Positions 18,678-37,342 of a DNA stretch of 58,057 nucleotides are shown one piece after another. Where the stretch lies: contig CAYLPQ010000005.1 in NCBI GenBank assembly GCA_964385605.1, forward strand, positions 1-58,057, in the 5' to 3' direction. The notes beneath the pieces were generated by a model, which was not told the DNA's origin, ran no database searches, and was given only the letters and a program-made list of their open reading frames with translations. Every line of letters starts with the position of its first letter. Within the stretch, counting starts at the first letter, position 1. This DNA comes from an uncultured Oscillospiraceae bacterium. GTDB taxonomy: Bacteria > Bacillota > Clostridia > UMGS1883. The translations under genes and the position numbers were made by a program.

Positions 18678-18706
18678 ATAATACAACTTTTTTTTGACTG
18701 TGTCAA
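18678..18706 (-). promoter_or_regulatory. Putative promoter of the minus-strand glycan arm
   Basis: On the minus strand: TTGACA, a 17-nt spacer, then TATTAT, about 40 nt upstream of the ATG at 18639. Confidence 0.55.
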
Positions 18707-18764
18707 ACGTTTTTGTGTATAAGAGGCTTAAATGCAAATTTGTAGGTTTGCAAAGCTGTTAGTA

Positions 18765-18793
18765 TTGACATTTTTTGCTCATTATTATATAAT
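18765..18793 (+). promoter_or_regulatory. Consensus sigma-70 promoter of the plus-strand glycan arm
   Basis: Perfect TTGACA, a 17-nt spacer, then TATAAT, about 58 nt upstream of the ATG at 18851. Confidence 0.65.
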
Positions 18794-18850
18794 ACACTAG
18801 ATTGATTGTGTGATCAAAACAGTTTGAAGAATAACATGGGAGAATGTAAA

Positions 18851-19864: not shown

Positions 19865-21007
19865 ATGAGAATCGTGAAGGCTGGAATTATAACGTTTCAT
19901 TTTGCGCACAACCAGGGTGCTGTTTTGCAAGGCTATGCGTTGCAGAAGTTTCTGAAAAAATTGGGGCATGATGCAGAAGTTATAAACTATTGTCCGCCGT
20001 ACCATACAAATCGTTACAGTGCAAGAAGAAATCCTTTTATAATGGCATCGGATACCCTTAAAAAGAATAAAAATCTGAAAATTCAAAAAAGGTTATATAA
20101 AGCAGCTCGTTCCTTTGCAAAAGGAATTTATATTTCTGTTACCGGAGTATACAAACTGCGTGAGAAAAAGTTTGGCGATTTTGTAAAGAAAAATCTTGAT
20201 TTGACAAGAGAATATAAATCCCTTAAAGACCTTCAGAAAAATCCTCCAAAGTGTGATATATACATATCGGGGAGTGACCAACTGTGGAATCCTGAATTGG
20301 TGAACAATGGGTTTGACGGTGCGTATTTTTTGGATTTCGGAGCAAGTAACATAAAAAAGATTACTTATGCAGTCAGTCTGAAGGAGAGTTATACACAGAA
20401 AGAAAAAGACGAGATAAAGGCATACTGTAGAAATATTGATGTTATTTCATCACGCGAGAAAAGTGAAACTCTTGATGAACTGCTTGGAGAAAACTACACA
20501 GTGTGTGTGGACCCGACCCTGCTTCTTTCAAAAGAAGAGTTTGCTGATGCAGAAAACGAAATTGAGGAAAAAGAGCCATACATTTTTGTATATGGCTTTG
20601 AAACATCGCCCAATATGGTTGAGGCGGTAGATGTGATTTCAAAAGCTACGGGATTTCGGGTTATCAACGGTTCTCCGGACAGAGTATATCTTAATAATGC
20701 GACAAAGCTTCGCAATTATGGTCCGGGCGAATTTCTCGGCTATATAAAGAATGCTGATTTTGTGATAACAAACTCTTTCCATGGAACGGCATTTTCGCTT
20801 ATTTATAATAAAAAGTTTGTTACGGTAGCACATACAACTCGCGGTAGGAGAATGACAGAGTTGCTTGGGAAGATGGGGCTTTCGGACAGAATATGGTCAG
20901 AGAATGGTTGTAAGTGGGAAGAAGAGATTGATTATTCAGTGGCAGAACAAAGAAGGAACGAATTGAAAGAACAAGCTACAGAGTACCTTAACAATAATTT
21001 GAAATGA
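19865..21007 (+). CDS. Polysaccharide pyruvyl transferase family protein (CsaB/WcaK-like)
   Basis: 380 aa. The N-terminus (IITFHFAHNQGAVLQGYALQKFL), SGSDQLWN and NSFHGTAFS blocks are typical of PF04230-type pyruvyl transferases. Confidence 0.8.
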   Translation: MRIVKAGIITFHFAHNQGAVLQGYALQKFLKKLGHDAEVINYCPPYHTNRYSARRNPFIMASDTLKKNKNLKIQKRLYKAARSFAKGIYISVTGVYKLREKKFGDFVKKNLDLTREYKSLKDLQKNPPKCDIYISGSDQLWNPELVNNGFDGAYFLDFGASNIKKITYAVSLKESYTQKEKDEIKAYCRNIDVISSREKSETLDELLGENYTVCVDPTLLLSKEEFADAENEIEEKEPYIFVYGFETSPNMVEAVDVISKATGFRVINGSPDRVYLNNATKLRNYGPGEFLGYIKNADFVITNSFHGTAFSLIYNKKFVTVAHTTRGRRMTELLGKMGLSDRIWSENGCKWEEEIDYSVAEQRRNELKEQATEYLNNNLK

Positions 21008-22239: not shown

Positions 22240-23373
22240 ATGGCGGAAAATGAGAGAATATGGCTTTCCTGCCCTACAATACACGGGGAGGAACAGATTT
22301 TTATTAAAGAGGCATTTGATACCAACTGGGTAGCCCCCCTTGGAAAAAATGTTAACGAATTTGAAAAAGAGATTGCTTCATTTGTCGGTGTAAAGGGTGC
22401 CGCAGCTATGACTGCGGGAACTCACGCACTTCATCTTGCAGTAAAGCTTGCAGGTGTTAAAGAGGGGGATATTGTCCTTTGTTCCGACCTGACATTTTCT
22501 GCGACGGTTAACCCTGTTAGTTATGAAAACGGCACACAGGTGTTCATAGACAGCGAGCGTGACACCTGGAATATGGATCCCAATGCTCTTAAAATTGCTC
22601 TTGAAAAATACAAGGGTAGAGTTAAGGCAGTTATGCTTGTGCATCTTTACGGTACTCCGTCAAAGATTGATGAAATCAGGGCTCTTTGTGATGAATACGG
22701 TGTGATACTTATTGAGGATGCGGCAGAATCCCTTTCTGCCACATATAAGGGTAAACAGACCGGATCTTTTGGTAAGTTTGCCGCAATCAGCTTTAACGGC
22801 AACAAGATTATAACATCCTCCGGCGGTGGAATGTTCCTTTCCGATGATGAGGACGCAGTGAAGAAAGTACGATTCTTCTCAACACAGGCACGTGAGCCGT
22901 TTCCTTATTATCAGCACGAGGAAATCGGCTACAACTACCGTATGAGTAATGTTGTTGCCGGTATCGGCAGAGGTCAGCTTCTTCACCTTGAAGAACACAG
23001 AAAATTGAAAGAAGAAATATACTTCCGCTATAAAGAGGGACTCAGGGATTTGCCCGTAAGTATGAATCCTTATGAGAAATGTGCAGTTCCTAACTTCTGG
23101 CTCAGTTGTATGCTCCTTTCTGAAGAGGCAATGAAAATTACAAATCCCGAAAAAATCCGTCTTACACTTGAGACGGAAAATATCGAATCAAGACCTGTAT
23201 GGAAGCCTATGCATATGCAGCCTGTATATAAGGAACACGATTTTATTACTGCAGGTGACAATGTTGGTGAGGACATTTTCAGACGCGGACTATGTCTGCC
23301 CAGTGATATAAAGATGACAAAGGTTCAGCAGAACAAGGTAATAGATTTAATAAAAAAATGCTTTGAGGGATAA
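22240..23373 (+). CDS. DegT/DnrJ/EryC1/StrS-family sugar aminotransferase (PglE/WecE-like)
   Basis: IWLSCPTIHGEEQIFIKEAFDTNWVAPLG and the PLP-lysine block SFNGNKIITSSGGGM. Confidence 0.9.
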   Translation: MAENERIWLSCPTIHGEEQIFIKEAFDTNWVAPLGKNVNEFEKEIASFVGVKGAAAMTAGTHALHLAVKLAGVKEGDIVLCSDLTFSATVNPVSYENGTQVFIDSERDTWNMDPNALKIALEKYKGRVKAVMLVHLYGTPSKIDEIRALCDEYGVILIEDAAESLSATYKGKQTGSFGKFAAISFNGNKIITSSGGGMFLSDDEDAVKKVRFFSTQAREPFPYYQHEEIGYNYRMSNVVAGIGRGQLLHLEEHRKLKEEIYFRYKEGLRDLPVSMNPYEKCAVPNFWLSCMLLSEEAMKITNPEKIRLTLETENIESRPVWKPMHMQPVYKEHDFITAGDNVGEDIFRRGLCLPSDIKMTKVQQNKVIDLIKKCFEG

Positions 23374-23375
23374 AA

Positions 23376-24461
23376 ATGTCAAAAATTGTTATACTGACAA
23401 ACTCAATAACGGGACTTCGTTCTTTCAGAATTGAAGTTATGAAAAAATTCCGTGAAGAGGGACATTCAGTTATAATCTATTGTCCTGTCCACGAGGAAAC
23501 GGAAGAATTTACCGAAATCGGTTGCGAAGTGAAGTTTGTGAAAAATATTCAGCGCCGCGGTACAAGTATTAAGACGGATATTAAGCTGTTTCTGGAATAT
23601 TTCAAAATTCTCGGCAAGGAAAAGCCTGATATAGTTTTCACTTACACAATAAAGCCGAATGTATATGGTGCGCTTGCCTGCGGCATTAGGGGGATTCCCT
23701 GTGCACCGAATATAACTGGTCTTGGCAGTGCCGTTGAAAACGGCGGCAGGATGCAGAAACTTACGGTGTTTTTGTATAAGCTTGGATTTTTCCGTGTTAA
23801 GAAGGTGTTTTTTCAGAATAAGGAGAATATGGATTTCTTCGTAAAGAAGAAAATTGCCCTCGGCAAGCACGAGCTTTTGCCGGGTTCAGGTGTGAATCTT
23901 GAAAGATTTCAGCTTATGCCGTATCCCGAAAAGGATACTGTGGAGTTTGCATTTATCTCCCGTATTATGAGGGAAAAGGGTGCCGACCAGTATTTAGAGG
24001 CGGCAGAAGCTATCAGGGAAAAGTATCCGAACGCGGTTTTCCACGTTTGCGGAAGTTGTGAAGAGGCTTATCAGGAAAGACTTTCCGAGCTTCACGAAAA
24101 AGGAATTATAAATTACCACGGCAGACTTCGTGATATCCGAGAAATACATAAGGAAATTCACTGTACGGTTCATCCTACGTATTATCCCGAGGGGATGAGT
24201 AATGTGCTTCTTGAATCCTGCGCAAGCGGTAAGGCAATTATTACCACTGACCGCAGCGGTTGCCGTGAAATTGTTGATGATGGTGTAAACGGATATATAG
24301 TACAGCAGAAGAATACACAGGACGTAATCGAAAAGATTGAAAAATTCCTTGCTCTTTCATTTGAAGAACGAAAAGAAATGGGTCTTCGCGGCAGGGAAAA
24401 GGTAGAGAAAGAATTTGACCGTAATATTGTAATTGATAAGTATGTAAATGCGTTGAAATAG
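23376..24461 (+). CDS. Glycosyltransferase family 4 (GT-B, Glycos_transf_1)
   Basis: C-terminal EX7E-type block YYPEGMSNVLLESCASGKAIITTD. Confidence 0.85.
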   Translation: MSKIVILTNSITGLRSFRIEVMKKFREEGHSVIIYCPVHEETEEFTEIGCEVKFVKNIQRRGTSIKTDIKLFLEYFKILGKEKPDIVFTYTIKPNVYGALACGIRGIPCAPNITGLGSAVENGGRMQKLTVFLYKLGFFRVKKVFFQNKENMDFFVKKKIALGKHELLPGSGVNLERFQLMPYPEKDTVEFAFISRIMREKGADQYLEAAEAIREKYPNAVFHVCGSCEEAYQERLSELHEKGIINYHGRLRDIREIHKEIHCTVHPTYYPEGMSNVLLESCASGKAIITTDRSGCREIVDDGVNGYIVQQKNTQDVIEKIEKFLALSFEERKEMGLRGREKVEKEFDRNIVIDKYVNALK

Positions 24462-24481
24462 AATTTTGGGAGGATATTTAT

Positions 24482-25399
24482 ATGGATGGTTATAAAAAAA
24501 TTATAAAAAGCAGAAAGCATCGGATCATGATTCTTAAAATGATGAGTTTTATTCCTGATAGCATTATGCTTCGTTTACAGTATTACATAAAGTTAAAAAG
24601 AAAACTGAATTTAAAAAACCCAAAACGTTTTTCAGAAAAATTACAGTGGTACAAGTTGTATTATAGAAATCCCGAAATGCGCATCTGTTCAGATAAAGCT
24701 GATGTTCGGAACTTTGTGAAAAATTGTGGACTAGAACATATTTTAGTTAAATGTTATGGAATATATTCTTGTCCGGAAGAAATAAATTTTGATGAATTAC
24801 CTACATCTTTTGTAATGAAAAAAACTTTAGGCGGGGGCGGTAATAGTGTTCTGCTTATCAAAGATAAGAAAATAGAAGATGTTGCTAGTTTGAAAAAAAC
24901 GGCTTCTAATTGGGTAAAAAAACCAAAAGCGAAAAAAAATTCAGGAAGAGAGTGGGCATACAAATCTGAAAAGTCAAAGATAATCATAGAAGAGTTCTTA
25001 ATGGAAAAGGGAACAGATTCAAGCAGTATAGATGATTACAAATTCATGTGTTTTAATGGCAAGGTACAGTATGTGTTTGTGTACAGAGATCGTTTTAAAA
25101 ATGTGAAGAGAGCAATCTATGACAGAGATTGGAACTGCTTAAGTATTGAGTCGGGATACGAGCGCCTTTTGGATGATGTTGAAAAACCCAAGGACTTTGA
25201 AGAAATGTGTGAAATAGCGGAAAAACTTTCGGAAAAATTCCCATTTGTGCGCGTGGATCTTTATTGGGTGAATGAAAAAATATATTTTGGAGAAATGACA
25301 TTTTATCCGACTTCGGGATATATTCTGTTTGATCCGGATGAGTTTGATTTTATATTGGGAGATCATTTTGTTCTTCCGGAAAAGAGAAAAAGCATATGA
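24482..25399 (+). CDS. TupA-like ATP-grasp amidoligase, copy 1
   Basis: KNPKRFSEKLQWYKLYYRNPE, DDYKFMCFNGK and RVDLYWVNEKIYFGEMTFYP resemble the ATPgrasp_TupA family signature. Confidence 0.75.
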   Translation: MDGYKKIIKSRKHRIMILKMMSFIPDSIMLRLQYYIKLKRKLNLKNPKRFSEKLQWYKLYYRNPEMRICSDKADVRNFVKNCGLEHILVKCYGIYSCPEEINFDELPTSFVMKKTLGGGGNSVLLIKDKKIEDVASLKKTASNWVKKPKAKKNSGREWAYKSEKSKIIIEEFLMEKGTDSSSIDDYKFMCFNGKVQYVFVYRDRFKNVKRAIYDRDWNCLSIESGYERLLDDVEKPKDFEEMCEIAEKLSEKFPFVRVDLYWVNEKIYFGEMTFYPTSGYILFDPDEFDFILGDHFVLPEKRKSI

Positions 25400-26460
25400 A
25401 GAAAATAATATTTTTCACTGGTTCAATGGGGCGTGGAGGCGCAGAAAGGGTAATCTCAATACTTTCCAATCTGTACGCAGAAAAAAGGTGGAAGGTTGAT
25501 ATTGTTATGCTTTTGCATAATAAACCTGCAGGCTACTCCCTTGATGAACGTGTTGAAGTAAAAAAGTTTTTTCCTGAAAAAAGTGGTATGGTTAAAAAAA
25601 TCATATGCAACATAAAAAATATCCGCACTTACATAAAAAAAGAAAAACCGGATGTGGTTGTTTCCTTTATGGCACAAAACACGGTTATTTCAGCAATTGC
25701 ATGCAGAGGTACCGGGGTGCGGTACATCGCTTCGGAACGGATTGACCCCGCCTGTGTAAAACGTAATTTTGTGTACAGAAAATTATTAAACAGTATTTAC
25801 AAAACAGCAGATGCCGTGATTTTCCAAACCGAAAGAGCGAAGAGCTATTTCAATGAAAAAATACAGCAAAACAGTGTGATAATCGGAAACCCTGTTAATG
25901 TTGCTTGTGAAGCCGCCGAGAATCCTGCAAAAAAAATTGTGACCGTCGGAAGACTCACTTATCAGAAAAATCATAAAATGCTGATAAATGCTTTTAAAAA
26001 TGTACTGGCAACTCATCCCGGATATATTTTAGAGATATACGGGGAAGGTGTGGAAAAGAAAAATCTCTCAAAACAAATCAAACTTCTGGGACTGGAAAAT
26101 AATGTTTTTTTGTGCGGCAATCAGCCTGATGTTCACGAAAAAATCAAGGATGCACAGATGTTTGTGCTTTCGTCTGATTTTGAAGGACTCTCAAATGCGC
26201 TTCTGGAAGCAATGATGATGGGGCTTCCCTGTATTTCAACCGATTGCGCCGGTTCCGATGAAGTTATAGAAAACGGAAGGAACGGAATCCTGGTGCCTGT
26301 AGGTGATGGAAAAAGATTAACAGAAGCAATTATTGAAATTATAGAAAATGATGCAATCAGGCGAGATATTGCTGAAAATGCAAAGATAAGTGTCGAAAAA
26401 TTCAAGGCGGAAAACATAATAGGTCAGTGGACAAAAGTGATTGAAGGGGATATGATATGA
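25396..26460 (+). CDS. Glycosyltransferase family 4 (GT-B)
   Basis: GSMGRGGAERV at the N-terminus and SDFEGLSNALLEAMMMGLPCISTDC. ATGA overlap with the upstream gene. Confidence 0.85.
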   Translation: MKKIIFFTGSMGRGGAERVISILSNLYAEKRWKVDIVMLLHNKPAGYSLDERVEVKKFFPEKSGMVKKIICNIKNIRTYIKKEKPDVVVSFMAQNTVISAIACRGTGVRYIASERIDPACVKRNFVYRKLLNSIYKTADAVIFQTERAKSYFNEKIQQNSVIIGNPVNVACEAAENPAKKIVTVGRLTYQKNHKMLINAFKNVLATHPGYILEIYGEGVEKKNLSKQIKLLGLENNVFLCGNQPDVHEKIKDAQMFVLSSDFEGLSNALLEAMMMGLPCISTDCAGSDEVIENGRNGILVPVGDGKRLTEAIIEIIENDAIRRDIAENAKISVEKFKAENIIGQWTKVIEGDMI

Positions 26461-27317
26461 AACTTAAAAGAGTAATAAAGCGGCTCACAAGAGTTTTATC
26501 CGATAAAGCTTACATAAGGTTAAAATATTTCTCGCGTTTTAGAAAATTCCCTGACCTTAAAAATCCTAAAACCTTTTGCGAAAAATTACAATGGCTTAAG
26601 CTTTACGATAGAAATCCTGAATATTCAAAAATGGTTGACAAGTATGAAGTCAGAGAGTATGTAAAGGAAAAACTCGGTGAAGAATATCTTGTTCCGCTTT
26701 TAGGAGTATGGGACAGCTTTGATGAGATTGATTTTGATAAACTTCCCCGGCAGTTTGTCCTGAAGTGCACTCACGACAGCGGTGGACTTGTAATTTGCAA
26801 AGATAAGAGCAAGTTGAATATTGAGAAAACAAGGAAAAAAATTAATAGGTCACTTAAAAATAATTATTATTGGAGTGGCAGGGAATGGCCCTATAAAGAT
26901 GTTAAGCCAAGAATAATTGCAGAAAAATATATGGTAGATGAATCCGGGACGGAGCTTAAGGATTATAAATTTCTGTGCTTTAACGGAAAGCCTATGTTTG
27001 TGGAATATCACACCGGAAGATTTACAGAAAAGCACACTCAGGATTTTTATGATATAAACTGGAACAAAACCAATATATCCCAGGAAGGAACAATGTCAGA
27101 TTTTACAGTGGAGAAACCGATGCTGTTTGATAAAATGATAGAGCTTACCAATATCCTTGCTGATGGGATACGCCATGTGAGAATAGACTGGTATAATATT
27201 AACGGCAAAATATATTTTGGAGAAATTACTTTTTTTGATAATTCGGGATTGGTTCCGTTCGATAAAGAAGATGACGATTTACTTTTAGGAAGTCTTATAG
27301 ATTTGAAAGAAGGTTAA
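26457..27317 (+). CDS. TupA-like ATP-grasp amidoligase, copy 2
   Basis: KNPKTFCEKLQWLKLYDRNPE, KDYKFLCFNGK and RIDWYNINGKIYFGEITFF. Paralogous to 24482..25399. Confidence 0.75.
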   Translation: MKLKRVIKRLTRVLSDKAYIRLKYFSRFRKFPDLKNPKTFCEKLQWLKLYDRNPEYSKMVDKYEVREYVKEKLGEEYLVPLLGVWDSFDEIDFDKLPRQFVLKCTHDSGGLVICKDKSKLNIEKTRKKINRSLKNNYYWSGREWPYKDVKPRIIAEKYMVDESGTELKDYKFLCFNGKPMFVEYHTGRFTEKHTQDFYDINWNKTNISQEGTMSDFTVEKPMLFDKMIELTNILADGIRHVRIDWYNINGKIYFGEITFFDNSGLVPFDKEDDDLLLGSLIDLKEG

Positions 27318-27321: not shown

Positions 27322-28587
27322 ATGTTTGCTGAGTTTGAAAAGCACGAATCCAACGTAAGGTCTTATTGCAGAAATTTCCCTATTGTTTTTAATGAAGCCA
27401 GAGGTGGCAAGTTGTATTCCGAAAGCGGCGAAGAGTATATTGACTTTTTTGCCGGAGCAGGTGCAATGAATTATGGACATAACAATCCGTATATAAAGAA
27501 AAAGATTCTTGAATATTTGTCAAAGGACTGCATTATTCATGCTCTTGATATGTATACGGTTGAAAAAAGAAATTTCATAAAAACCTTCCGCGAGAATATT
27601 CTTGAACCAAAAAATCTTGATTACAAAATTATGTTCTGCGGTTCAACCGGTACAAATGCAGTTGAGGCGGCTCTTAAGCTTGCAAGAAAAAACACAAAGA
27701 GAACAAATGTGTTTGCCTTTTCCGGTGCGTTTCACGGGATGACACTCGGTTCTCTTGCGCTTACAAGTGATACTCACAGCCGTGGGGGAGCAGGAGTTCC
27801 TCTTAATAACGTAACATTTATGCCCTATTCCACCCAGTTTGATGATTACAGAAAATCTATTGAGTATATCGAGTGGGCTATAAAGGACGACCACTCAGGT
27901 ATAGATAAGCCTGCTGCAATGATTCTTGAAACCATTCAGGCAGAGGGCGGAATAAATGTTGCAGATGAAAACTGGCTTCGCGAAATAAGAAGAATCTGCA
28001 GCGAAAATGACATTATTATGATTTGCGATGATATTCAGGTCGGAGTATGCAGAAGCGGCGGATTCTTCTCCTTTGAAAGAGCCGGTATTGTGCCAGATAT
28101 GGTAGTAATGTCAAAGTCAATAAGCGGATTCGGACTTCCTATGTCAATCCTTCTTATGAAGCCTGAATTTGATATTTTTACCCCCGCAGAGCACAACGGA
28201 ACATTCCGTGGAAATCAGCTTGCTTTTGTAGGTGCTGCTGCAGGTATTGAGTTTTACAGACAGGCAGATTTGCCCGGTATTGTAAAGAAAAACGAAGCAA
28301 TTATAAAAGAATACCTTGAAAGTGAAATTCTTCCTATGGATAAAAGGCTTTCTGCCCGTGGTATAGGTATGATCTGGGGAATTGATTTCTCGGAAATTGA
28401 CCCTGCACTTTCCAAAACAGCAATGCAGGAATGTGTTAAAAACGGCGTTGTGATAGAGCGTGCCGGTCGTAATGACTGTGTGCTTAAGATACTTCCTACT
28501 CTTGTAATTGAAGAAGAAGATTTGCGCAAGGGCCTTCAGGTTGTAAAGAATGCAGTTGAAAAAGTTTTAAAGGAATGTGGTAAATAA
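27322..28587 (+). CDS. Diaminobutyrate--2-oxoglutarate transaminase-like class III aminotransferase (EctB/Dat/PvdH-like)
   Basis: FEKHESNVRSYCRNFPIVFNEARGGKLYSESGEEYIDFFAGAGAMNYGHNNP and the PLP-lysine block MSKSISGFGLPMS closely match the DABA transaminase pattern. Confidence 0.85.
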   Translation: MFAEFEKHESNVRSYCRNFPIVFNEARGGKLYSESGEEYIDFFAGAGAMNYGHNNPYIKKKILEYLSKDCIIHALDMYTVEKRNFIKTFRENILEPKNLDYKIMFCGSTGTNAVEAALKLARKNTKRTNVFAFSGAFHGMTLGSLALTSDTHSRGGAGVPLNNVTFMPYSTQFDDYRKSIEYIEWAIKDDHSGIDKPAAMILETIQAEGGINVADENWLREIRRICSENDIIMICDDIQVGVCRSGGFFSFERAGIVPDMVVMSKSISGFGLPMSILLMKPEFDIFTPAEHNGTFRGNQLAFVGAAAGIEFYRQADLPGIVKKNEAIIKEYLESEILPMDKRLSARGIGMIWGIDFSEIDPALSKTAMQECVKNGVVIERAGRNDCVLKILPTLVIEEEDLRKGLQVVKNAVEKVLKECGK

Positions 28588-29510
28588 TGAAAAAAGGTCT
28601 TGTAAGTGTAGTTATTCCTTCCTACAACGGAAGTGATAAAGTTGGCAGAGCTGTTAAAAGTGCTCTGAACCAAACTTATAAAGATGTTGAAGTAATAGTG
28701 GTTGATGACAACGGACTCGGCACTGAAGAACAGATAAAAACGGAAAAAGCTCTGGAAGAGTTTAAAGATTACCCGAATTTCCGTTACATAACTCACGAAG
28801 TGAATAAGAACGGCTCGGCTGCCAGAAACACCGGAGCAAGGGCGGCAGAGGGTGAATTTATCGGTCTTCTTGATGATGATGATGTTTATTTGCCCCATAA
28901 TGTGGAGATTCATATGAATCGATTTAAGGAGCTGGACGAAACTTATGCACTGGTGTACTGTTCCTGTGAGCAGTACAGAGGTGATACTTTTGTAAAGGTT
29001 CTCCACAAGACAAAATGTGGAAGTCTGTTTTATGATGTTATGCGTCATTGGGCTATTATAGGGAGTAGTGAACTTATCGTCAAAAAAGAAGCTTACGATG
29101 CTGTTGGTGGATTTGATGAAAGCTTCAGACGCCATCAGGATTGGGAATTTACGGCGAAAATTGCACATAAATATAAGATTGGTGTGGTTGAAGAAGTCGG
29201 CACAAGAGGCTATCTTGAATACAGAAATTCTCCGGGTAATTATGAAACTGCAAAAAAATACCGCGTTCACTATATTGAAAAGATGATGCCTTATATGCAG
29301 TCGCTTACAAAAAAACAGCAAAAAGAAATAATTACAGCAAATTATGTCAGCCTTATAATGCAGCTTCTGCGCAAAGGGAAAATAGTAAAATTTATTAAGG
29401 AATATAACGGCTTCAAATTGGGCTTTTATGGTGTGCCGTTTGTCTTAAAATATGCTTATCATTATTTCTTTAAAAATAAAAACTTCTGGACGTTAAAGAA
29501 AAGAAAATAA
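28587..29510 (+). CDS. Glycosyltransferase family 2
   Basis: VSVVIPSYNGSDKVGRAVKSALNQTYKDVEVIVVDDN and LLDDDD. TAATG overlap with the transaminase gene. Confidence 0.85.
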   Translation: MKKGLVSVVIPSYNGSDKVGRAVKSALNQTYKDVEVIVVDDNGLGTEEQIKTEKALEEFKDYPNFRYITHEVNKNGSAARNTGARAAEGEFIGLLDDDDVYLPHNVEIHMNRFKELDETYALVYCSCEQYRGDTFVKVLHKTKCGSLFYDVMRHWAIIGSSELIVKKEAYDAVGGFDESFRRHQDWEFTAKIAHKYKIGVVEEVGTRGYLEYRNSPGNYETAKKYRVHYIEKMMPYMQSLTKKQQKEIITANYVSLIMQLLRKGKIVKFIKEYNGFKLGFYGVPFVLKYAYHYFFKNKNFWTLKKRK

Positions 29511-29530: not shown

Positions 29531-30778
29531 ATGGAAAAGAAAAATTATATCCCGTCTTTTTTAGTTTCATATTTGCTTTCTATAAAAGGTCTTAATCAGA
29601 TTATGGGAATTATACTTAGAAAAGGTGACGGAATTATGTTTATGAATCTGATTCCGGTAGCAGCTTTGCTGGTTTTACACTTTTTCATCTCAGACAAGAA
29701 AAACGACCTTAATATGGATAAGAAAGCGCTTCTTTTTGTATACTATATCGTCAGTGTGATTGTGGTATATAAATATGCTGCAGTGCGCACCACTTTTTCT
29801 GCTGTTAATGCTTTTGTGTACTGCCTTATTCCAATATACATATCCTTTTACAAGATAGATGTAGAGAAAGTACTGAATTATATGTTGCTTTTTTCTGCAC
29901 TTGTAATGCCTGTTTCAAACGAGTTTTTCAAAGATGTGGGAGCACGGTACGAAACTATTGGTATGTCGACAACATACAATATATTACCGTTTGTTGTTGC
30001 GGCTATAGTTCACTTTATGTATTATAGGAAGAAGGCTACCTTCTGGACATGGATAGGCTACGGCATAAATTTATATTACCTCATAAAGGTAATATATCTT
30101 GGAAACCGCGGGCCGATTATTTCGTTGATGGTGTGTGCACTTCTTCTCTTTATCCGCAAAATTAATCAGGACGGCACTGTGCGCAAAAATACAGGCAGGA
30201 CTTTGTTTATAACGTTGTCTGTCGGAATTTCAGCCATTCTGATAGTGAGTAATGTTGAAAGTATAATCCTTTCTGTTCACAGTTGGCTTCAAAGTATGGA
30301 TGTAAACTTGGCATTCATAAGTAAATCGGTAGCAAAAATACAACAAGGCGATATATCAAACGGAAGAAGTAGGCTATTTGATTTTGTAATAGATGGCATA
30401 AAAGAAAATTACTTGATAGGAAACGGCATTTCTTCAATTGCCTACAAGAGCTTTGGAAGATTCCCTTATCCTCACAATTTATTTTTGCAGATGTGGTATG
30501 ATCTGGGGATAATTGTATCGCTTCCCCTTCTTTTTGCAGTAGGAAGAGCAACAAAAATAACAATATTCAACTATAATATAAACAAAGAGACTATGACGAT
30601 ACTTATCCTTTTATTTACATTGTCAATACCAAGACTTTGTTATTCAGCAGAATTCTGGGATAATACAACGTTTTGGTTTTTAATGATGTTTTCAATTTCT
30701 CCGAATGTATACAGTGAAAATGCAGCCGGAGATGATATAGGGGATATTGATGAAAAAATAGGTGAGACAAATGAGTGA
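29531..30778 (+). CDS. wzy: Wzy-type O-antigen/EPS polymerase (O-antigen ligase-like domain)
   Basis: About 10 or more TM segments with a periplasmic-loop block YPHNLFLQMWYDLGII typical of Wzy_C. Confidence 0.7.
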   Translation: MEKKNYIPSFLVSYLLSIKGLNQIMGIILRKGDGIMFMNLIPVAALLVLHFFISDKKNDLNMDKKALLFVYYIVSVIVVYKYAAVRTTFSAVNAFVYCLIPIYISFYKIDVEKVLNYMLLFSALVMPVSNEFFKDVGARYETIGMSTTYNILPFVVAAIVHFMYYRKKATFWTWIGYGINLYYLIKVIYLGNRGPIISLMVCALLLFIRKINQDGTVRKNTGRTLFITLSVGISAILIVSNVESIILSVHSWLQSMDVNLAFISKSVAKIQQGDISNGRSRLFDFVIDGIKENYLIGNGISSIAYKSFGRFPYPHNLFLQMWYDLGIIVSLPLLFAVGRATKITIFNYNINKETMTILILLFTLSIPRLCYSAEFWDNTTFWFLMMFSISPNVYSENAAGDDIGDIDEKIGETNE

Positions 30779-32210
30779 AAGTAATACAAAAAAACAAGTT
30801 TTTTCGGGGCTGATGTGGCGGTTTTCCGAAAGAATACTGGCACAGCTTGTAACCTTTATAGTATCTGTTGTCCTAGCACGGCTTCTTGACCCGGCAAGTT
30901 ACGGTGCAATTGCCATTGTAAATATATTTATAGCACTCGCAAATGTTTTTGTAACAAGTGGATTCGGAAATTCACTTGTGCAGAAAAAAGATTCTGATGA
31001 TACGGATTTTTCTACGGTATTCTATTTTGGAATAGGTTCGGGAATTATATTATATCTGTGTGTTTTTTTTACAGCGCCTTTCATTGCTTCTTTTTATGAT
31101 ATGAAGATTCTTACCCCTGTTCTAAGGGTAATGGGTCTTAAGCTGATACTTGCCGGAGTAAACAGTGTTCAGCATGCTTATGTGTCAAAAAAAATGATAT
31201 TCAGAAAGTTTTTCTGGTCAGCTCTATTAGGTACTTTGACTAGTGCGATAGTAGGTATTACTATGGCATATATGGGCTTTGGAATATGGGCACTTGCAGG
31301 TCAGTATATGTTTAGATCTATTGTGGATACGGTTGTTTTGTGGTTTACGGTAAGGTGGAGACCGAAAAAACTTTTTTCATTCAGTAGGTTAAAGAGCTTA
31401 TTTTCATACGGCTGGAAAATTCTTGCTACTTCTTTGGTGCGCACAGGTTATAAAGAAGTCCGGGGAATAGTAATAGGAAAGATGTATACTGCTTCTGACC
31501 TTGCATACTACGATAAGGGAAAAAGCTTTCCGTCTCTGGTTACAACAAACATATATGTTGCCGTACAAAGTGTAGTATTTCCCGCAATGGCAAAGGTACA
31601 GGATGACCTTAAGCAGCTTAAGGCGATGACAAGAAGACTTGTGAGGCTTCACAGTTATATTGTCCTGCCTCTTCTACTTGGCTTGGCAATGGTTGCAGAA
31701 CCTGTAATACAGCTTTTGCTTACTGAAAAATGGATTTTTAGTGTTCCTTTCCTGCAAGCATTCTGTATCATATTATCTTTCGAACCTATTCAGACTGCTA
31801 ATCTTCAGGCAATTAAAGCGATTGGAAAAAGCGATATATATCTTAAACTTGAAATTATAAAAAAAACTATAGGCATTGTGGCTCTTATTGTAAGTGCAAG
31901 GTACGGAGTATGGGCTATTGCCCTAGGTGAAGTTGTTGTGGAATTCTTTGCGGCATTAGTAAATATTTATCCCAACAAAAAATATATTGATTACGGATAT
32001 ATGGAGCAGATACGGGATTTATTCAATGCAGCTATCCCACTGACATTAATGTGTATAGCAGTATTGTGTATGAATATGTTTAATGTAGGAACATTTACTG
32101 AACTGGTTATAAAGGTAGCGGTAGGTGCAGTAGCCTATGTGGGAAGCTCCGTTATTTTCAAAAATGACAGTTTTGTTTATATATGGAACTATATCACAAA
32201 GCGGAAATAA
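30771..32210 (+). CDS. wzx: Wzx-type flippase (MOP/PST family polysaccharide biosynthesis protein)
   Basis: 480 aa polytopic protein. The N-terminus (GLMWRFSERILAQLVTFIVSVVLARLL) is typical of the Polysacc_synt family. Start trimmed to the ATG at 30771, which has an AGGTGAG RBS. Confidence 0.85.
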   Translation: MSESNTKKQVFSGLMWRFSERILAQLVTFIVSVVLARLLDPASYGAIAIVNIFIALANVFVTSGFGNSLVQKKDSDDTDFSTVFYFGIGSGIILYLCVFFTAPFIASFYDMKILTPVLRVMGLKLILAGVNSVQHAYVSKKMIFRKFFWSALLGTLTSAIVGITMAYMGFGIWALAGQYMFRSIVDTVVLWFTVRWRPKKLFSFSRLKSLFSYGWKILATSLVRTGYKEVRGIVIGKMYTASDLAYYDKGKSFPSLVTTNIYVAVQSVVFPAMAKVQDDLKQLKAMTRRLVRLHSYIVLPLLLGLAMVAEPVIQLLLTEKWIFSVPFLQAFCIILSFEPIQTANLQAIKAIGKSDIYLKLEIIKKTIGIVALIVSARYGVWAIALGEVVVEFFAALVNIYPNKKYIDYGYMEQIRDLFNAAIPLTLMCIAVLCMNMFNVGTFTELVIKVAVGAVAYVGSSVIFKNDSFVYIWNYITKRK

Positions 32211-32226: not shown

Positions 32227-33150
32227 TTGACAAAAGTATTGGTTTTAATGGGTGGTTTATCAACCGAAAGAGAAGTTTCGCTCCGCAGTGGCAATGCCGT
32301 GGCGAAAGCTCTTGAGGAAAAGGGTTATGAGGTTGCTGCCCTTGACATACAAAAGGAAACTATCGGCAAAATCCAGGAAATCAATCCCGATGTGGTATTT
32401 CTTGCTCTCCACGGAAAATACGGGGAAGACGGATGTATCCAGGGTATGCTTGAATGGATGGGCTATCCTTATACAGGCCCCGGTGTTGCATCCAGTGCAA
32501 TCTGTATGGACAAAATTCTCACAAAGAGGATTCTTGTAAATCACAATATACCTACTCCGAAGTTTATGGAATTTAAGTCCTTTGATAAGTGGACGAAAGA
32601 TGTAATTCTCAAAAATTTCTCTATGCCTGTTGTGCTTAAGGCGGCATGTCAGGGTTCAAGCATCGGTGTGAGCATTGTCGGAAGTGAAGCACAGCTTGAA
32701 AAAGAAATTGAGGAGATTTTGAAATATGGCGACAGCCTTCTTGTTGAAGAATTTATTGGCGGAACAGAGCTTACAGTTCCTATTATCGGAAATGAAAACT
32801 ACCGTGCACTTCCAATAATTGAAATCACCTCCGAAAACGAGTTTTACGATTTTGAGTCGAAGTATACACAGGGTATGTGTCAGCATATTATCCCTGCACG
32901 GATTGATGAAGCTACGTACAAAGCAGTTGAAAAAGCCGCACTTCAGGCATATGGAGCCGCAGGTTGTAAGGGCTTTTCGCGAGTAGACGTGATAATTGAT
33001 AAAAATAACAATCCTTATGTTATTGAAATAAACACTATCCCCGGAATGACGTCTATGAGTCTTTTTCCGGATTCAGCGCGCTATGCAGGAATTGAATTTC
33101 CCGAGCTTCTGGATGAAGTTGTAAAACTTGCATTGGAGAAAAAATTATGA
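32227..33150 (+). CDS. ddl: D-alanine--D-alanine ligase family ATP-grasp enzyme
   Basis: VLVLMGGLSTEREVSLRSG, LHGKYGEDGCIQGMLEWMGYPYTGPGV and EINTIPGMT are Ddl blocks. TTG start with a GAGGTGA RBS. Confidence 0.85.
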   Translation: MTKVLVLMGGLSTEREVSLRSGNAVAKALEEKGYEVAALDIQKETIGKIQEINPDVVFLALHGKYGEDGCIQGMLEWMGYPYTGPGVASSAICMDKILTKRILVNHNIPTPKFMEFKSFDKWTKDVILKNFSMPVVLKAACQGSSIGVSIVGSEAQLEKEIEEILKYGDSLLVEEFIGGTELTVPIIGNENYRALPIIEITSENEFYDFESKYTQGMCQHIIPARIDEATYKAVEKAALQAYGAAGCKGFSRVDVIIDKNNNPYVIEINTIPGMTSMSLFPDSARYAGIEFPELLDEVVKLALEKKL

Positions 33151-33665
33151 AAAAGATTATAATTATCGGTGCTGGTACTTTTTCAACAGTTGTTATTGAG
33201 TCCATTCTGGAAAATCCTTTTTATGAGGATTATGAAATAGAGGGTTTCCTTGATGATGGGAGCATCTGCGACGGAAATTTTGACTATCCTCTTTTGGGTA
33301 AAATTGACGATGCGGAAAAATTCAACGACAAAGATACTTACTTTGTGTTGGCGATAGGCTCACCTGATGCGAGAAGGTCTATTGCTGAAAAGCACCCCTA
33401 CCTTAACTATCTGACAGTTATCGATAAATCAGCTAATATAAGCAAATATGCAACCATCGGAAAAGGTTGCGTGATTATGAAAAACACATCAATCAACACT
33501 CTTGTAAGAGTAGACGATTTTGCAATAGTAAATACCGGCGCAATAGTTGACCATCATGTTAAGGTTGGTCGCTATACTCATGTGGGACAGGGTGTAGTTC
33601 TCTGGCACAGCGCACAGGTTGACGAGTGTCAGCATCTTTTCCCAGGAACAGTTATTAAGGGTTAG
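33147..33665 (+). CDS. NeuD/PglD-type sugar N-acetyltransferase (left-handed beta-helix)
   Basis: N-terminal Rossmann-like KKIIIIGAGTFSTVVIESI plus C-terminal hexapeptide repeats. ATGA overlap with ddl. Confidence 0.7.
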   Translation: MKKIIIIGAGTFSTVVIESILENPFYEDYEIEGFLDDGSICDGNFDYPLLGKIDDAEKFNDKDTYFVLAIGSPDARRSIAEKHPYLNYLTVIDKSANISKYATIGKGCVIMKNTSINTLVRVDDFAIVNTGAIVDHHVKVGRYTHVGQGVVLWHSAQVDECQHLFPGTVIKG

Positions 33666-33769
33666 GAGCAGGCTGTGCCTGTCCCCGGGTCGCGTACTTA
33701 CCTAGTAAAACATAATTCCACGCGTTTGAATTTTATATAATTTACCACATGGTAAAAAGGAGAAGAATT

Positions 33770-34990
33770 ATGACAACGCAGTTTGAAGAATTTCTGAATG
33801 TCCTTGGACATTCAGTGTTTGGATCTGAATATTGTCCCTCGGGAAAAGCCGATTGCACAGCTATATATAATATGGCAGTAAAGCAGGGGGTTTTTCCTCT
33901 TGTTTATCCGGTTGTTTCTGAAAAAATTCCGTCTTCCGATATGAAGTGGGAAATGCTCTTCCTGCAAACTGTTGCAATTAATGAGAAAAAACTGTATTGC
34001 CTCCAAAAAATAATTGAAAACTTTGACAAAGAGAATATAGAATACTGCGTTCTTAAAGGTGTCAGTGTAGCAAGTGTGTATTTTATGCCGGAATGTCGTG
34101 CTTCGGGAGATATAGATATTTATGTATATCCCGAAAGTGAAAGAAAAGCAACAAAAATCCTCGAAAATATGGGGATGAATATCGTACCCAGAGGTGCGGA
34201 GGGTCATCACTTTGAAGCGAGGGACAAAAACGGTGGACTTATTGAGGTTCATATTGCCTTGTATGATAAAATGCTCGGACACATCGTCTTTAAAAATAAG
34301 TTTTCAGTTACACAGCCATTCATAACTGTTGAGACAAAAGGCGGATTTACGGCAAACTCATTAGGTATCCTGGATAACCTCAATTTCCTTACGGCACATC
34401 TTATCAAGCATTTTGTCAAGGAGGGGTGCGGTATCCGCCAGGTTACAGACCTGCTTGCTTTTGTGAATACGTATAAAGATGAAATTGATATGGAAAAGTA
34501 TTTTTCAGTGCTGAAAGAAATTAAGTTTGACACATTTATCAAAAATATTTTTGGTATAGGGGTGAAGTACTTCGAACTTCAGCTCAACGATTATGAAACA
34601 GAGTTAAGCGACAAAATTCTTGAAGATATAGAAACAGGCGGAAGTTTTGGCTTTGGTGAAGAGGAACGAAACGGATTTTACGAAAGTTTCCTGAAAACTC
34701 GTTCAGAAATGTCTGCTGACGAATTTAACAAAAATCTCGATAAAAAACGTAAACAAAGCATTATAAAGAGTGTGCTTTTACCGGGTAAAGGTTTCCTGAT
34801 AAAAAAAGGATATAACTATCTCAAAAAATCTTCACTGCTTTATCCTGTTGCATATATTCACAGAATCTTTGACGTGTTAAAGCTTTTAATAAGCAGAAAA
34901 CGAAAAATATCGGATTTAAATTATAAAGAAAAATCAAACAGTACCATTGACGACAGAATGAAACTGATGGAAGAAATGAAAATTATATAA
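33770..34990 (+). CDS. Uncharacterised nucleotidyltransferase family protein (NTP_transf_5-like)
   Basis: CVLKGVSVASVYFMPECRASGDIDIYVYPE...GLIEVHIALY matches the pattern of the 'uncharacterised nucleotidyltransferase' family. Start trimmed to MTTQFEEF, which has an AAAGGAG RBS. Confidence 0.6.
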   Translation: MTTQFEEFLNVLGHSVFGSEYCPSGKADCTAIYNMAVKQGVFPLVYPVVSEKIPSSDMKWEMLFLQTVAINEKKLYCLQKIIENFDKENIEYCVLKGVSVASVYFMPECRASGDIDIYVYPESERKATKILENMGMNIVPRGAEGHHFEARDKNGGLIEVHIALYDKMLGHIVFKNKFSVTQPFITVETKGGFTANSLGILDNLNFLTAHLIKHFVKEGCGIRQVTDLLAFVNTYKDEIDMEKYFSVLKEIKFDTFIKNIFGIGVKYFELQLNDYETELSDKILEDIETGGSFGFGEEERNGFYESFLKTRSEMSADEFNKNLDKKRKQSIIKSVLLPGKGFLIKKGYNYLKKSSLLYPVAYIHRIFDVLKLLISRKRKISDLNYKEKSNSTIDDRMKLMEEMKII

Positions 34991-35007
34991 AAAAGGAAAA
35001 TGAAATT

Positions 35008-36141
35008 ATGTACAGTGAAAAGTTTTTTTGCCCATACCGCATATGTCCGCTCGGGGCCCACAGCGACCACCAGTACGGAATAGTAAGCGGTTTTGCCATT
35101 GATAAAGGCATAGAAATTGAATATGATAAAACTACTGACGGAAGTATCGTTCTTTCCAGTAATGAATTCTCAACACAGGTAGAGTTTTCTCTCAATAAAC
35201 CCATTTTGAAAAATGGTGACTGGGCAGACTATTTAAGAGGTGCTGCGGCATCCCTTAATCGCAACTATGATCTTCCCTACGGTGTGAAGGCACATATAAA
35301 AGGTAGTCTTCCTATTGGCGGACTTTCCTCGTCTGCGGCTGTAATTATTGCATTCCTCGGCACACTTTGCCGTGTAAATGGGATAGTTCTTTCAAAAGGT
35401 GAAATTGTTGATACTGCTCTTTGGGCAGAAAGAAATTTCGTGGGAGTAAGTGTAGGTAAGCTTGACCAGTCCTGTGAGGTTTATTCTAAAAAGGACCACC
35501 TCCTTAAAATTGACACCAAGGATGACTCTTACGAGCTTATTACGAAGCACAAGGACATGCCACCATTTGAATTTGTTGTATTTTTCAGCGGACTTGAAAG
35601 AAGTCTTGTAGGAAGTAAATTCAATATGCGTGTGGACGAGCTTAAGAGTGCCGCTTATGCGCTCAAGGCATTTTCAGGTATGGAATACGGCAAGTTTGAG
35701 GATGCTGTTCTCCGCGATGTTCCCAAGGAAGTTTTTGAGGAGTACAAGCACAAGCTTCCCGAAAACTGGAAAAAAAGAGCAGAGCATTTCTATACAGAAT
35801 TTGAACGTGTTAAGAATGGCGCGGAATTTTGGAGAAAGGGCGACCTTGCATCTTTCGGACAGCTTGTTTTCCAAAGTGGGGAAAGTAGCATCTACAACTT
35901 TGAGACAGGTTCTGTTCAGCTTAAGAAAATCCACGAAATTATGCTTGAAACCCCCGGAATTTACGGAGGACGTTTCAGTGGCGCGGGATTCAAGGGCTGT
36001 GCAATGGCTCTTATAAATCCTGAATACAAAGAAGAAATTGCATATAACGTTACAACGCAGTATCTTAAGGAATTCCCCGAACTTGAGGGTAAGTTCAGCG
36101 TGAATTTCTGTAATACTGCAGACGGAGTAAAGCTTAACTGA
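35008..36141 (+). CDS. GHMP-family sugar-1-kinase (galactokinase/galacturonokinase-like)
   Basis: N-terminal [15 protein letters not shown] (galactokinase-signature variant), GHMP motif [14 protein letters not shown] and C-terminal [12 protein letters not shown]. Confidence 0.8.
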
Positions 36142-36157: not shown

Positions 36158-37342
36158 ATGAAGATTACAGTTGCAGGAACAGGATATGTAGGTATTTCAA
36201 ATGCGATTTTGCTTGCGCAGAATAATGAGGTGTGGGCGGTAGATATCGTTCCTGAAAAGGTGGATATGATAAATAACGGCAAATCCCCCATCGTAGACAA
36301 GGAAATCGAGGAGTATCTTAAAGAAAAGACTCTTAACCTTACTGCTACAACAGATGCACAAAAAGCATACAAGGATGCGGATTTTGTTATCGTGTCAACA
36401 CCCACAAACTATGACCCGAAGCTAAACTATTTTGATACGTCTTCGGTTGAAAGTGTAATTGAGCTTGTAATGGAAATAAATCCTTCGGCTGTTATTGTTA
36501 TAAAATCAACTGTACCCGTTGGATATACTGAAAAAGTAAGGGAAAAATATAACTGTGACAATATTATTTTCTCTCCTGAATTTTTAAGAGAGGGAAAAGC
36601 TCTTTACGATAATCTCTATCCTTCAAGAATTATTGTGGGATTTCCGAAAAACAATGAAGTTCTGGCAGAAAAAGCAAATGTTTTTGCATCTCTTCTTCAA
36701 GAGGGCGCAATCAAGGATGATATACCTGTACTTTTTACTAATCCTACCGAAGCGGAGGCGGTAAAGCTTTTTGCTAATACGTATCTTGCTCTTCGGGTAT
36801 CATTCTTTAACGAGCTTGATACATATGCAGAGGTAAGAGGGCTTGATACAAAGCAGATTATTGAAGGAGTAGGTCTCGACCCGAGAATTGGATCGCATTA
36901 CAATAACCCCTCTTTTGGATACGGGGGATACTGTCTGCCAAAGGATACAAAGCAGTTGCTTGCTAATTTCAACGATGTACCAAATAATATTATTCGTGCG
37001 ATTGTTGATGCAAACAGCACCAGAAAAGATTTTATAGCGGACAGAATTATAGAAAAGAATCCTAAAATAGTGGGAATATACCGTCTTACAATGAAAGCAA
37101 ATTCCGATAATTTCCGTCAAAGCTCTATACAGGGTGTAATGAAAAGAATTAAGGCAAAGGGCATAGAAGTTGTAGTTTATGAGCCTACACTCAAGGAGGA
37201 AAAATTCTTCAATTCGCGTGTTATAGAGAGTCTTGAGGATTTTAAGGGTATGTCTGACGTAATTATCGCAAACAGGTATAATGACGAGATTGCGGATGTT
37301 ATTGACAAGGTTTATACGAGAGATTTGTATTTCAGAGATTAA
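36158..37342 (+). CDS. ugd: UDP-glucose 6-dehydrogenase
   Basis: [20 protein letters not shown], the catalytic block [10 protein letters not shown], and length 394 aa. Confidence 0.95.

Follow-up and report, generated by a model that had tools for sequence, protein, structure and literature searches.

An EctB-type diaminobutyrate transaminase gene paired with a TupA-like ligase gene in a Clostridia glycan operon: a candidate module for decorating a surface polysaccharide

The DNA analyzed here (hereafter the window) is a stretch of 58,057 nucleotides from contig CAYLPQ010000005.1 of an uncultured Oscillospiraceae bacterium (GCA_964385605.1), a low-GC, Clostridia-like organism to judge from its PolC-like polymerase, its SLH protein and its best relatives in Lachnospiraceae, Clostridia and Pelotomaculum, and the gene in question is a plus-strand open reading frame (ORF) at 27322-28587 that encodes an EctB/Dat-family L-2,4-diaminobutyrate (DABA):2-oxoglutarate transaminase. 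It stands inside a run of closely spaced plus-strand genes for a Wzx/Wzy-type glycan. This run has one strong promoter-like site (18765-18793), and no convincing terminator was found between 18.8 kb and the transaminase gene. The genes follow each other in the order GT2-family glycosyltransferase, pyruvyl transferase, FrhB-like protein, DegT/LegC-like aminotransferase, GT4-family glycosyltransferase, TupA-1, a further GT4, TupA-2 and EctB, and then GT2, Wzy, Wzx, a D-Ala-D-Ala ligase (Ddl) homologue, a short PglD-like protein, an NTP_transf_5 protein, a GHMP kinase, UDP-glucose 6-dehydrogenase (UGDH) and a short-chain dehydrogenase/reductase (SDR) resembling UDP-glucuronate (UDP-GlcA) 4-epimerases, so that the last two belong to the same plus-strand run as the transaminase. 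A divergent promoter region (18640-18805) parts this operon from a minus-strand operon (14695-18639), which reads, in transcription order, a weakly DegT-like protein of 324 amino acids (a sub-threshold match, E 0.019), a FemAB-like protein, a PglC-type priming transferase and a 422-amino-acid ATP-grasp enzyme. The junctions on both sides of the transaminase gene are tight: the TupA-2 stop codon (TAA, 27315-27317) is followed by four nucleotides (gaaa) and then by the transaminase ATG at 27322, and the transaminase TAA (28585-28587) shares its final A with the ATG of the GT2 gene (TAATG). The first-pass annotation had described both the 4-nt spacing and the TAATG overlap, and the sequence agrees with it. 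Genes were assigned with a Pfam scan of all listed ORFs of at least 120 amino acids that do not lie inside a longer assigned ORF. The features on which the argument depends are as follows.

18765-18793, plus strand: consensus sigma-70-like promoter, 12/12 matches, ahead of the plus-strand glycan operon
18706-18678, minus strand: divergent sigma-70-like site, 11/12 matches
23376-24461, plus strand: GT4-family glycosyltransferase upstream of TupA-1 (Glycos_transf_1)
24482-25399, plus strand: TupA-1, second TupA-like ATP-grasp ligase, 305 amino acids, separate clade (PF14305, E 1.1e-48)
25396-26460, plus strand: GT4-family glycosyltransferase between TupA-1 and TupA-2 (Glycos_transf_1, Glyco_transf_4)
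26457-27317, plus strand: TupA-2, TupA-like ATP-grasp amidoligase, 286 amino acids, partner of the transaminase (PF14305, E 6.9e-74, positions 1-240 of 241)
27322-28587, plus strand: EctB/Dat-family transaminase, putative DABA supplier, 421 amino acids, ATG start (Pfam and NCBIfam)
28587-29510, plus strand: GT2 glycosyltransferase, start overlapping the EctB stop (PF00535, E 1.1e-29)
29531-30778, plus strand: Wzy-type repeat-unit polymerase (PF04932, Wzy_C)
30762-32210, plus strand: Wzx-type flippase (PF13440, E 6.4e-97)
36158-37342, plus strand: UGDH, putative source of the UDP-GlcA carboxylate (TIGR03026, 347.7 bits against a cut-off of 189.8)
37355-38362, plus strand: SDR epimerase most like UDP-glucuronate 4-epimerases (UDP-GlcA to UDP-galacturonate, UDP-GalA), substrate predicted (Pfam Epimerase)

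The transaminase is a full-length class III, fold-type I enzyme, with Aminotran_3 (PF00202) covering profile positions 7-402 of 403 (E 2.4e-72). Among the NCBIfam models, it passes NF006733 for diaminobutyrate--2-oxoglutarate transaminase (591.3 bits, cut-off 438), TIGR00709 (451.9 bits, cut-off 401.6) and, narrowly, the ectB equivalog TIGR02407 (558.0 bits, cut-off 552.2). The Acinetobacter Dat-type model NF005386 (338 bits, cut-off 753) and the PvdH-type model NF005393 (330 bits, cut-off 671) are failed, and the models for gamma-aminobutyrate (GABA), ornithine, putrescine and acetylornithine transaminases are missed by 150-400 bits. Placed by these scores among EctB, Dat, PvdH and GABA transaminases, the protein falls with the EctB/DABA-transaminase models, in keeping with the first-pass annotation, which had recognized a diaminobutyrate-transaminase N-terminus and pyridoxal 5'-phosphate (PLP) lysine block. 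EctB aligns with the window protein in the N-terminal block, ESNVRSYCRNFP, as well as in the block around the PLP lysine K265, MSKSISGFGLPMS. The top solved structures are three EctB entries, 9s1q, 9s1p and 6rl5 (E 3e-119 to 1e-114), with alignments that span residues 5-418; identity between the clade of the window protein and characterized EctBs, counted from printed alignments, is 47-50%. In Paenibacillus lautus EctB, the markers of the active site are the PLP lysine Lys274, Met149 (where GABA transaminases have their substrate arginine) and, in an Asn-x-Thr loop, Asn301 and Thr303 (PMC6915088). These correspond, at a constant offset of 9, to K265, M140, N292 and T294 in the window protein, and all four are invariant across an alignment of 34 relatives. 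Because of the NCBIfam scores and the P. lautus markers (PMC6915088), we assign the enzyme by sequence to the EctB type and not to the GABA-, ornithine- or sugar-aminotransferase type. A reading as a sugar-nucleotide aminotransferase was rejected, the protein being class III and a separate DegT-family enzyme being already present in the locus.

Compared with the EctBs of ectoine pathways (P. lautus; Chromohalobacter salexigens, 6RL5), the window protein shares family, length, PLP lysine, pocket markers and the NCBIfam pass (PMC6915088), but neither the window nor the surroundings of its TupA-linked relatives with annotated genes contain ectA, ectC or ask_ect, and the gene sits tightly among glycan genes. 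The Pfam scan of the 58-kb window found no EctA-type GNAT, ectoine synthase, PLP decarboxylase or nonribosomal peptide synthetase (NRPS), a result for the window and not for the whole genome, and it agrees with the earlier claim that ectA, ectC, a DABA decarboxylase and NRPS genes are absent here. The reading as an ectoine gene, which would place ectA and ectC alongside, was therefore rejected for this window.

The product of the gene directly upstream, TupA-2, shares 38% identity with TupA-1. A sequence search of the PDB with TupA-2 returned no relative. An AlphaFold2 model built from a 32-sequence alignment has a predicted local distance difference test score of 93 and a predicted template modeling (TM) score of 0.90, and Foldseek matched this model to Ddl, LysX, ArgX and biotin carboxylase (probability 1.00, TM 0.4-0.49). 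As modeled, the fold is that of an ATP-grasp carboxylate-amine ligase.

The pairing is not confined to the window. Besides the window, 13 distinct glycan loci of the Wzx/Wzy type have a TupA-2-type gene adjoining an EctB-like gene; identity to the window EctB ranges from 54 to 92% among them, and their sets of glycosyltransferases differ. The TupA-2-type gene is immediately upstream of EctB in L001, L003, L023, L024, L027, L028, L031, L033, L035, L040, L076 and L110 (our locus handles); a TupA gene is immediately downstream in L087 and one gene away in L032. In the five of these loci with called genes, the two genes overlap by as much as 11 nt or are separated by as much as 29 nt. EctB identity to the window is 81% in L001/L002, 79% in L003/L004 and 68% both in L024 and in L023, which equals L006 (Pelotomaculum propionicicum C1). 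In L110, found from the TupA side, the order is GT4, TupA-2 (73% identity), EctB (92%), GT2 (85%) and Wzy (73%). The window transaminase has thousands of relatives; those nearest to it, at 63-83% identity, were found in metagenomes and in genomes of Clostridia. The few names given to relatives by their sources are 'aspartate aminotransferase family protein' or 'diaminobutyrate-2-oxoglutarate transaminase'. Searching genome contigs with the window transaminase alone gave 17 loci, with the module only in Pelotomaculum (L006); a metagenome search added 80 loci, and phmmer with the window proteins then located the TupA-2-type neighbors in L027, L028, L031, L033, L035/36, L040 and L076 as well as the TupA genes of L087 and L032. 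Carriers of the module are mainly gut, rumen and anaerobic-digester Clostridia.

Neighbor counts point the same way. TupA is the top Pfam family immediately upstream of non-redundant EctB relatives (12/68), followed by asparagine synthase (4), GatD-type GATase_3 (4), generic ATP-grasp (3), NRPS condensation (2) and Orn/Lys/Arg decarboxylase (2); downstream, the counts out of 64 are five each for ATPgrasp_ST and Mur ligases and three each for PGA_cap and NRPS. Ectoine synthase and EctA are not among the 25 commonest families upstream (68) or downstream (64). By phmmer, homologues of the window glycosyltransferases occur in 16 of the 17 TupA-linked locus records and in 2/78 other EctB loci, and UGDH in 4/17 and 0/78, respectively. 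Elsewhere, EctB relatives adjoin Mur ligases, NRPS modules and Orn/Lys/Arg decarboxylases, and since these are known consumers of DABA, the family fits a DABA-making enzyme. On this comparative evidence, the TupA-like/EctB-like pair is a conserved two-gene module, usually tightly spaced or overlapping.

A neighbor-joining (NJ) tree of 88 EctB-like proteins, rooted on two EctBs from the PDB, places nearly all TupA-adjacent genes in one clade with the window; L087 falls just outside, and a few members without TupA are nested inside, having as neighbors MetRS, DHH, HAD, Mur ligase, decarboxylase and a weak ATP-grasp protein. In the TupA tree of the EctB loci, every EctB-adjacent TupA belongs to the TupA-2 clade, and the window TupA-1 clusters with TupAs that have no EctB beside them.

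We think it probable, on balance, that the window gene makes DABA as a precursor within this Wzx/Wzy heteropolysaccharide operon and that it forms, together with TupA-2, a mobile decoration module that amidates a sugar carboxylate. The EctB-type enzyme would make L-DABA from L-aspartate-beta-semialdehyde and L-glutamate. A GT4 enzyme would put glucuronic acid (GlcA) or galacturonic acid (GalA) onto the lipid-linked repeat unit, the uronate coming from the in-operon UDP-glucose dehydrogenase and 4-epimerase. TupA-2 would then use ATP to turn a sugar carboxylate, most likely that of GlcA or GalA, into an acyl phosphate, which one of the two amino groups of DABA would attack to give a DABA amide. 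The GT2 whose start overlaps the EctB stop would probably extend the amidated sugar, after which Wzx would flip the repeat unit and Wzy would polymerize it. An anionic uronate would in this way become a zwitterionic side group, because an N-alpha and an N-gamma amide alike leave one amine and one carboxylate free. The putative uronate source has all three UDPG_MGDP_dh domains and scores 640 bits with NF011631, under the equivalog cut-off of 757. The structure matches of the epimerase are 5u4q (E 1e-118) and, from Bacillus cereus, 6zl6 and 6zla (E 7e-51), the latter two of which we take to be UDP-GlcA 4-epimerase.

These steps are proposed because the same logic operates in Campylobacter jejuni HS:2 and because the ligase, transaminase and GT2 genes are contiguous in the window. 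In HS:2, Cj1437 transaminates dihydroxyacetone phosphate (DHAP) with L-glutamate to serinol phosphate, the UGDH Cj1441 supplies UDP-GlcA, the C-terminal TupA-like domain of Cj1438 amidates the C6 carboxylate of GlcA on the growing glycan with the free amine, and the GT2 domains of Cj1438 and Cj1434 act only on amidated GlcA (PMC12096443, PMC11800379). The Cj1438 C-terminal domain is the sole TupA-like enzyme with proven chemistry, so amidation of a sugar carboxylate by TupA-2 is a predicted activity, shown solely for Cj1438C (PMC11800379, PMC12096443); likewise, the GT2 at 28587-29510 is a candidate for extending the amidated sugar by analogy with Cj1438N (PMC11800379). A UGDH, an amine-making transaminase, a TupA-like ligase and a following GT2 are all present in the window locus, as in the C. 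jejuni uronamide system; in both, the in-cluster transaminase is PLP-type and glutamate-dependent (in the window, by prediction), and in the window it is contiguous with the TupA-like ATP-grasp and GT2 genes. The two systems differ in the amine, the window transaminase being a class III EctB/Dat enzyme expected to make DABA from aspartate semialdehyde where Cj1437 makes serinol phosphate from DHAP. Unlike a phosphorylated donor (serinol phosphate or ethanolamine phosphate), DABA would need no phosphatase step, and the Pfam scan found no HAD phosphatase in the window glycan locus. They differ also in that the window ligase is a stand-alone protein of 286 amino acids, not fused to a GT2, and has a paralogue, and in that the window system is of the Wzx/Wzy type in a Gram-positive-type genome whereas the C. 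jejuni capsule is carried on a lipid anchor via a linker of poly-3-deoxy-D-manno-oct-2-ulosonic acid (poly-Kdo; PMC11800397). The first-pass annotation had proposed that the transaminase supplies DABA, or a related amine, to the adjacent amidoligase, a proposal which now draws support from the 13 other loci and from the C. jejuni precedent.

Amino-acid amides of uronic acids have a wider precedent, such as the GalA-lysine amide of a Proteus O-antigen. TupA-like ATP-grasp genes (CfmP, WemR) are found in surface-polysaccharide loci and have been predicted to add amino-acid decorations (PMC13419641). The window resembles these WemR-like Gram-negative O-antigen loci in having such genes (PMC13419641) but differs in that the O-antigen systems take proteinogenic amino acids and need no dedicated supply gene, whereas the window would supply a non-proteinogenic diamino acid in cis. 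Supply of DABA by a stand-alone EctB/Dat-type gene that adjoins its consumer is also seen for polymyxin-type NRPSs, DABA-containing peptidoglycan and the Dat-Ddc route to 1,3-diaminopropane; in the window, the consumer would instead be a TupA-like ligase in a glycan operon. The two ligases themselves are interleaved with glycosyltransferases (GT4-TupA1-GT4-TupA2, 23376-27317), an order that is kept in L107 and L108, two loci discussed below. The glycan probably carries two different amide decorations, and the order GT4-TupA1-GT4-TupA2-EctB-GT2 suggests two successive rounds in which a uronate would be added and then amidated.

Several observations weigh against the DABA reading. Relatives of TupA-2 at 50-77% identity are numerous, and the four contexts that we read (L107, L108, L109 and L110) reject the idea that TupA-2 always travels with EctB, as L107, L108 and L109 lack it. 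L107 (GCA_045604905.1) and L108 stem from close relatives and are syntenic with the window, with flanking DctM, LysR, tryptophanyl-tRNA synthetase (TrpRS) and TagO genes at 79-90% identity (DctM 90%, TrpRS 90%) and a shared order of GT4 (60-62%), TupA-1 (54-56%), GT4 (57-64%), TupA-2 (63-69%), GT2 (63-78%) and Wzy (68-69%), and in both there is no EctB, nor any gene at all, between TupA-2 and GT2. After Wzy, both have a GT56 gene absent from the window, then Wzx and an ATP-grasp gene; the Ddl homologue (88%) comes next in L107 and was not found in the examined part of L108. L110 and L107 have counterparts of the window GT2 (28587-29510) at the corresponding place, with identities of 85% and 78%, respectively. 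L109, with a TupA-2 relative of 447 amino acids, has UGDH and no EctB. An adjacent EctB is therefore not needed for a TupA-2-type ligase to work, and family membership does not reveal which amine the ligase uses. On the NJ TupA tree, the EctB-less TupA-2-like proteins lie on a side branch, which also contains the EctB-linked L024, and thus there is no clean split by specificity; the trees are simple distance trees with no support values. UGDH lies within 8-10 kb in just about a third of the TupA-EctB loci, which disposes of a constant association with the module in the DNA examined, and it was not found within 10 kb in L003 and L023, so the carboxylate acceptor there may differ or be encoded elsewhere. 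The margin over the TIGR02407 cut-off is just 6 bits. Finally, we found no published DABA-containing glycan, though subscription journals could hold a prior description. Since EctB is present or absent in otherwise similar loci, it is an accessory gene; the simplest reading of this pattern is serotype-like variation in the amine used, and it is possible that the genomes of the EctB-less loci carry ectB elsewhere. The EctB-plus (window, L110) and EctB-minus (L107, L108) allelic loci constitute a natural experiment on the amine specificity of TupA-like ligases.

Three other explanations of the gene pair need to be weighed against amidation of a sugar carboxylate by DABA. The polarity could be the reverse, with the carboxylate of DABA activated by TupA-2 or another ATP-grasp enzyme of the locus and N-acylating an amino sugar, for example the 4-amino sugar to which the DegT aminotransferase and the PglC-type priming transferase point. 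N-aminoacyl amino sugars are known in O-antigens, the locus has a DegT/LegC-like aminotransferase (22240-23373), a PglC-like transferase and a short PglD-like acetyltransferase, and L023 and L003 combine TupA-EctB with amino-sugar pathways and have no UGDH within 10 kb. We nevertheless hold this to be unlikely, as UGDH is confined to TupA-linked EctB loci, the window itself has a UGDH and a GlcA-epimerase-like gene, and the sole proven TupA-like enzyme activates a sugar carboxylate and takes a free amine (PMC11800379, PMC12096443). Alternatively, the transaminase may have drifted to a related amine (for example, a different omega-amino acid or diamino acid, or an amino alcohol), which the ligase would then attach. 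EctB has measurable side activity on GABA (PMC6915088), the ectB equivalog model is passed just marginally (558 against 552.2 bits), and an identity of 47-50% to characterized EctBs leaves room for change; set against this, the four pocket markers are invariant, including the methionine that replaces the GABA-transaminase arginine, the models for the other amines are far out of reach, and relatives adjoin consumers of DABA (Mur ligases, NRPS modules, decarboxylases), and we judge such drift to be quite improbable.

It could also be that DABA is made for peptidoglycan or a wall peptide, for 1,3-diaminopropane and polyamines, or for ectoine (with ectA and ectC elsewhere), the location among glycan genes being incidental. 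This would agree with the relatives at 51-64% identity that adjoin Mur ligases, MurT/GatD, alanine racemase and Orn/Lys/Arg decarboxylases, and with the Ddl homologue and FemAB-like gene in the window. It is hard to reconcile with a transaminase gene that begins 4 nt from TupA-2 and overlaps the GT2 start, or with the recurrence of the pair in 13 glycan loci of otherwise different content. Moreover, the Pfam scan of the 58-kb window found no Mur ligase, and Mur ligase, decarboxylase, EctA and EctC are absent both from the window and from beside those TupA-linked relatives that have annotated genes. We regard an incidental location as very unlikely.

An in-cluster transaminase working with a TupA-like amidoligase to decorate a uronic acid is already known, as are amino-acid amides of uronic acids. 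New here are the use of an EctB-family enzyme for this purpose, the prediction that the substituent is a non-proteinogenic diamino acid, and the spread of the module in glycan loci of anaerobic Clostridia; we found no description of an ectB gene in a polysaccharide cluster in the literature searched, and subscription journals could hold one. If amidation by DABA is correct, a non-proteinogenic diamino acid joins the substituents of bacterial glycans, and genomes can be recognized as carrying a portable module of two genes, one for an EctB-type transaminase and one for a TupA-2-type ligase. The DABA amide would swap the negative charge of a uronate for a zwitterionic group. The classic glycans that modulate T cells are zwitterionic polysaccharides made by gut commensals, and the capsule chemistry of gut, rumen and anaerobic-digester Clostridia is almost unexplored. 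For annotation, members of the clade carry labels that name either the ectoine pathway or a generic 'aspartate aminotransferase family', and it would be a mistake to infer ectoine synthesis from their presence.

The remaining genes of interest in the window are listed below.

5858-8125, minus strand: MnaA- and TagO-type genes, left flank
11168-13641, plus strand: membrane-bound O-acyltransferase (MBOAT) protein and a 334-amino-acid protein with a faint GDSL/SGNH match
15960-16610, minus strand: small PglC-type phosphoglycosyl (priming) transferase, divergent operon (PF02397 Bac_transf, E 1.7e-62)
19865-21007, plus strand: polysaccharide pyruvyl transferase, with an FrhB-like partner
22240-23373, plus strand: DegT/LegC-like sugar aminotransferase
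32227-33150, plus strand: D-Ala-D-Ala ligase homologue, complete, between Wzx and the PglD-like gene (NF002378, 385 bits against a cut-off of 243)
33147-33665, plus strand: PglD/NeuD-like acetyltransferase, 172 amino acids (positions 1-168 of a 202-position model; 127.9 bits against a cut-off of 160.8)
33749-36141, plus strand: NTP_transf_5 protein (413 amino acids) and galactokinase-like GHMP kinase just upstream of UGDH (the kinase under all equivalog cut-offs)
45668-48514, plus strand: S-layer homology (SLH) domain protein, 948 amino acids, 7 kb downstream of the locus

The locus contains four ATP-grasp ligases (the two TupAs, the Ddl homologue and the 422-amino-acid enzyme) together with a FemAB-like, aminoacyl-tRNA-dependent transferase, a set that hints at peptide-like side chains. 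The Ddl homologue is 88% identical in L107 and 64% identical in L001, in both cases within a glycan locus, and may either be the housekeeping ddl or provide the polymer with a D-Ala dipeptide. We would give little credence to a more elaborate scheme, in which DABA is the diamino-acid branch point of a polysaccharide peptide side chain built by TupA-1, the Ddl homologue, the 422-amino-acid ATP-grasp enzyme and the FemAB-like protein. Were it true, the product would be a Wzx/Wzy-made 'teichuronopeptide' whose stem, a diamino acid plus D-Ala-D-Ala, would resemble that of peptidoglycan and could be cross-linked by wall transpeptidases. The PglD/NeuD-like protein may be C-terminally truncated, and the NTP_transf_5 protein and GHMP kinase could form a route for sugar-1-phosphate activation.

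Further contexts of EctB-like genes were seen in the comparative set. A PGA_cap (CapA-like) gene lies directly 3' of TupA-EctB in three loci, including L001 (11263-12366) and L003 (11260-12360), at the place taken by GT2 in the window. Clostridia EctB-like genes 51-64% identical to the window adjoin MurT/GatD, Mur ligases and alanine racemase (L005, 10001-11830; L030), one distant Clostridia gene encodes an extended form of 609 amino acids, and other distant ones adjoin NRPS modules, Orn/Lys/Arg decarboxylases or ATPgrasp_ST ligases. Such contexts suggest that these anaerobes build DABA into peptidoglycan and use it in other ways as well. An EctB-like protein 65% identical to the window (L025/L026, 10001-11266) occurs on 93 contigs, in a polysaccharide locus that has no TupA gene and carries ATPgrasp_ST, FemAB and LpxD-like genes, with a weak ATP-grasp protein directly 3' of the EctB-like gene; this type may represent a second kind of DABA-ligase module.

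Pyruvylated wall polymers are the ligands of SLH domains, and because an SLH-domain protein and a pyruvyl transferase are both nearby, one of the glycans of the locus or of the left flank may be an SLH anchor. The MBOAT pair at 11168-13641 looks like an O-acylation pair of the DltB/DltD or AlgI/AlgJ type, and a similar pair of an MBOAT and an uncharacterized protein follows UGDH in L024. The left flank of the window comprises an atp operon, UDP-N-acetylglucosamine (UDP-GlcNAc) 2-epimerase, a TagO/WecA-type transferase, a class-I (Trp/Tyr-type) tRNA synthetase, DctM, the MBOAT pair and LysR. On the right flank are an ABC-F protein (identified by its sequence, outside the Pfam scan), DUF188, Ham1, two M16 peptidases, Lgt, the SLH-domain protein, IspG, a PolC-like polymerase and serine hydroxymethyltransferase (SHMT).

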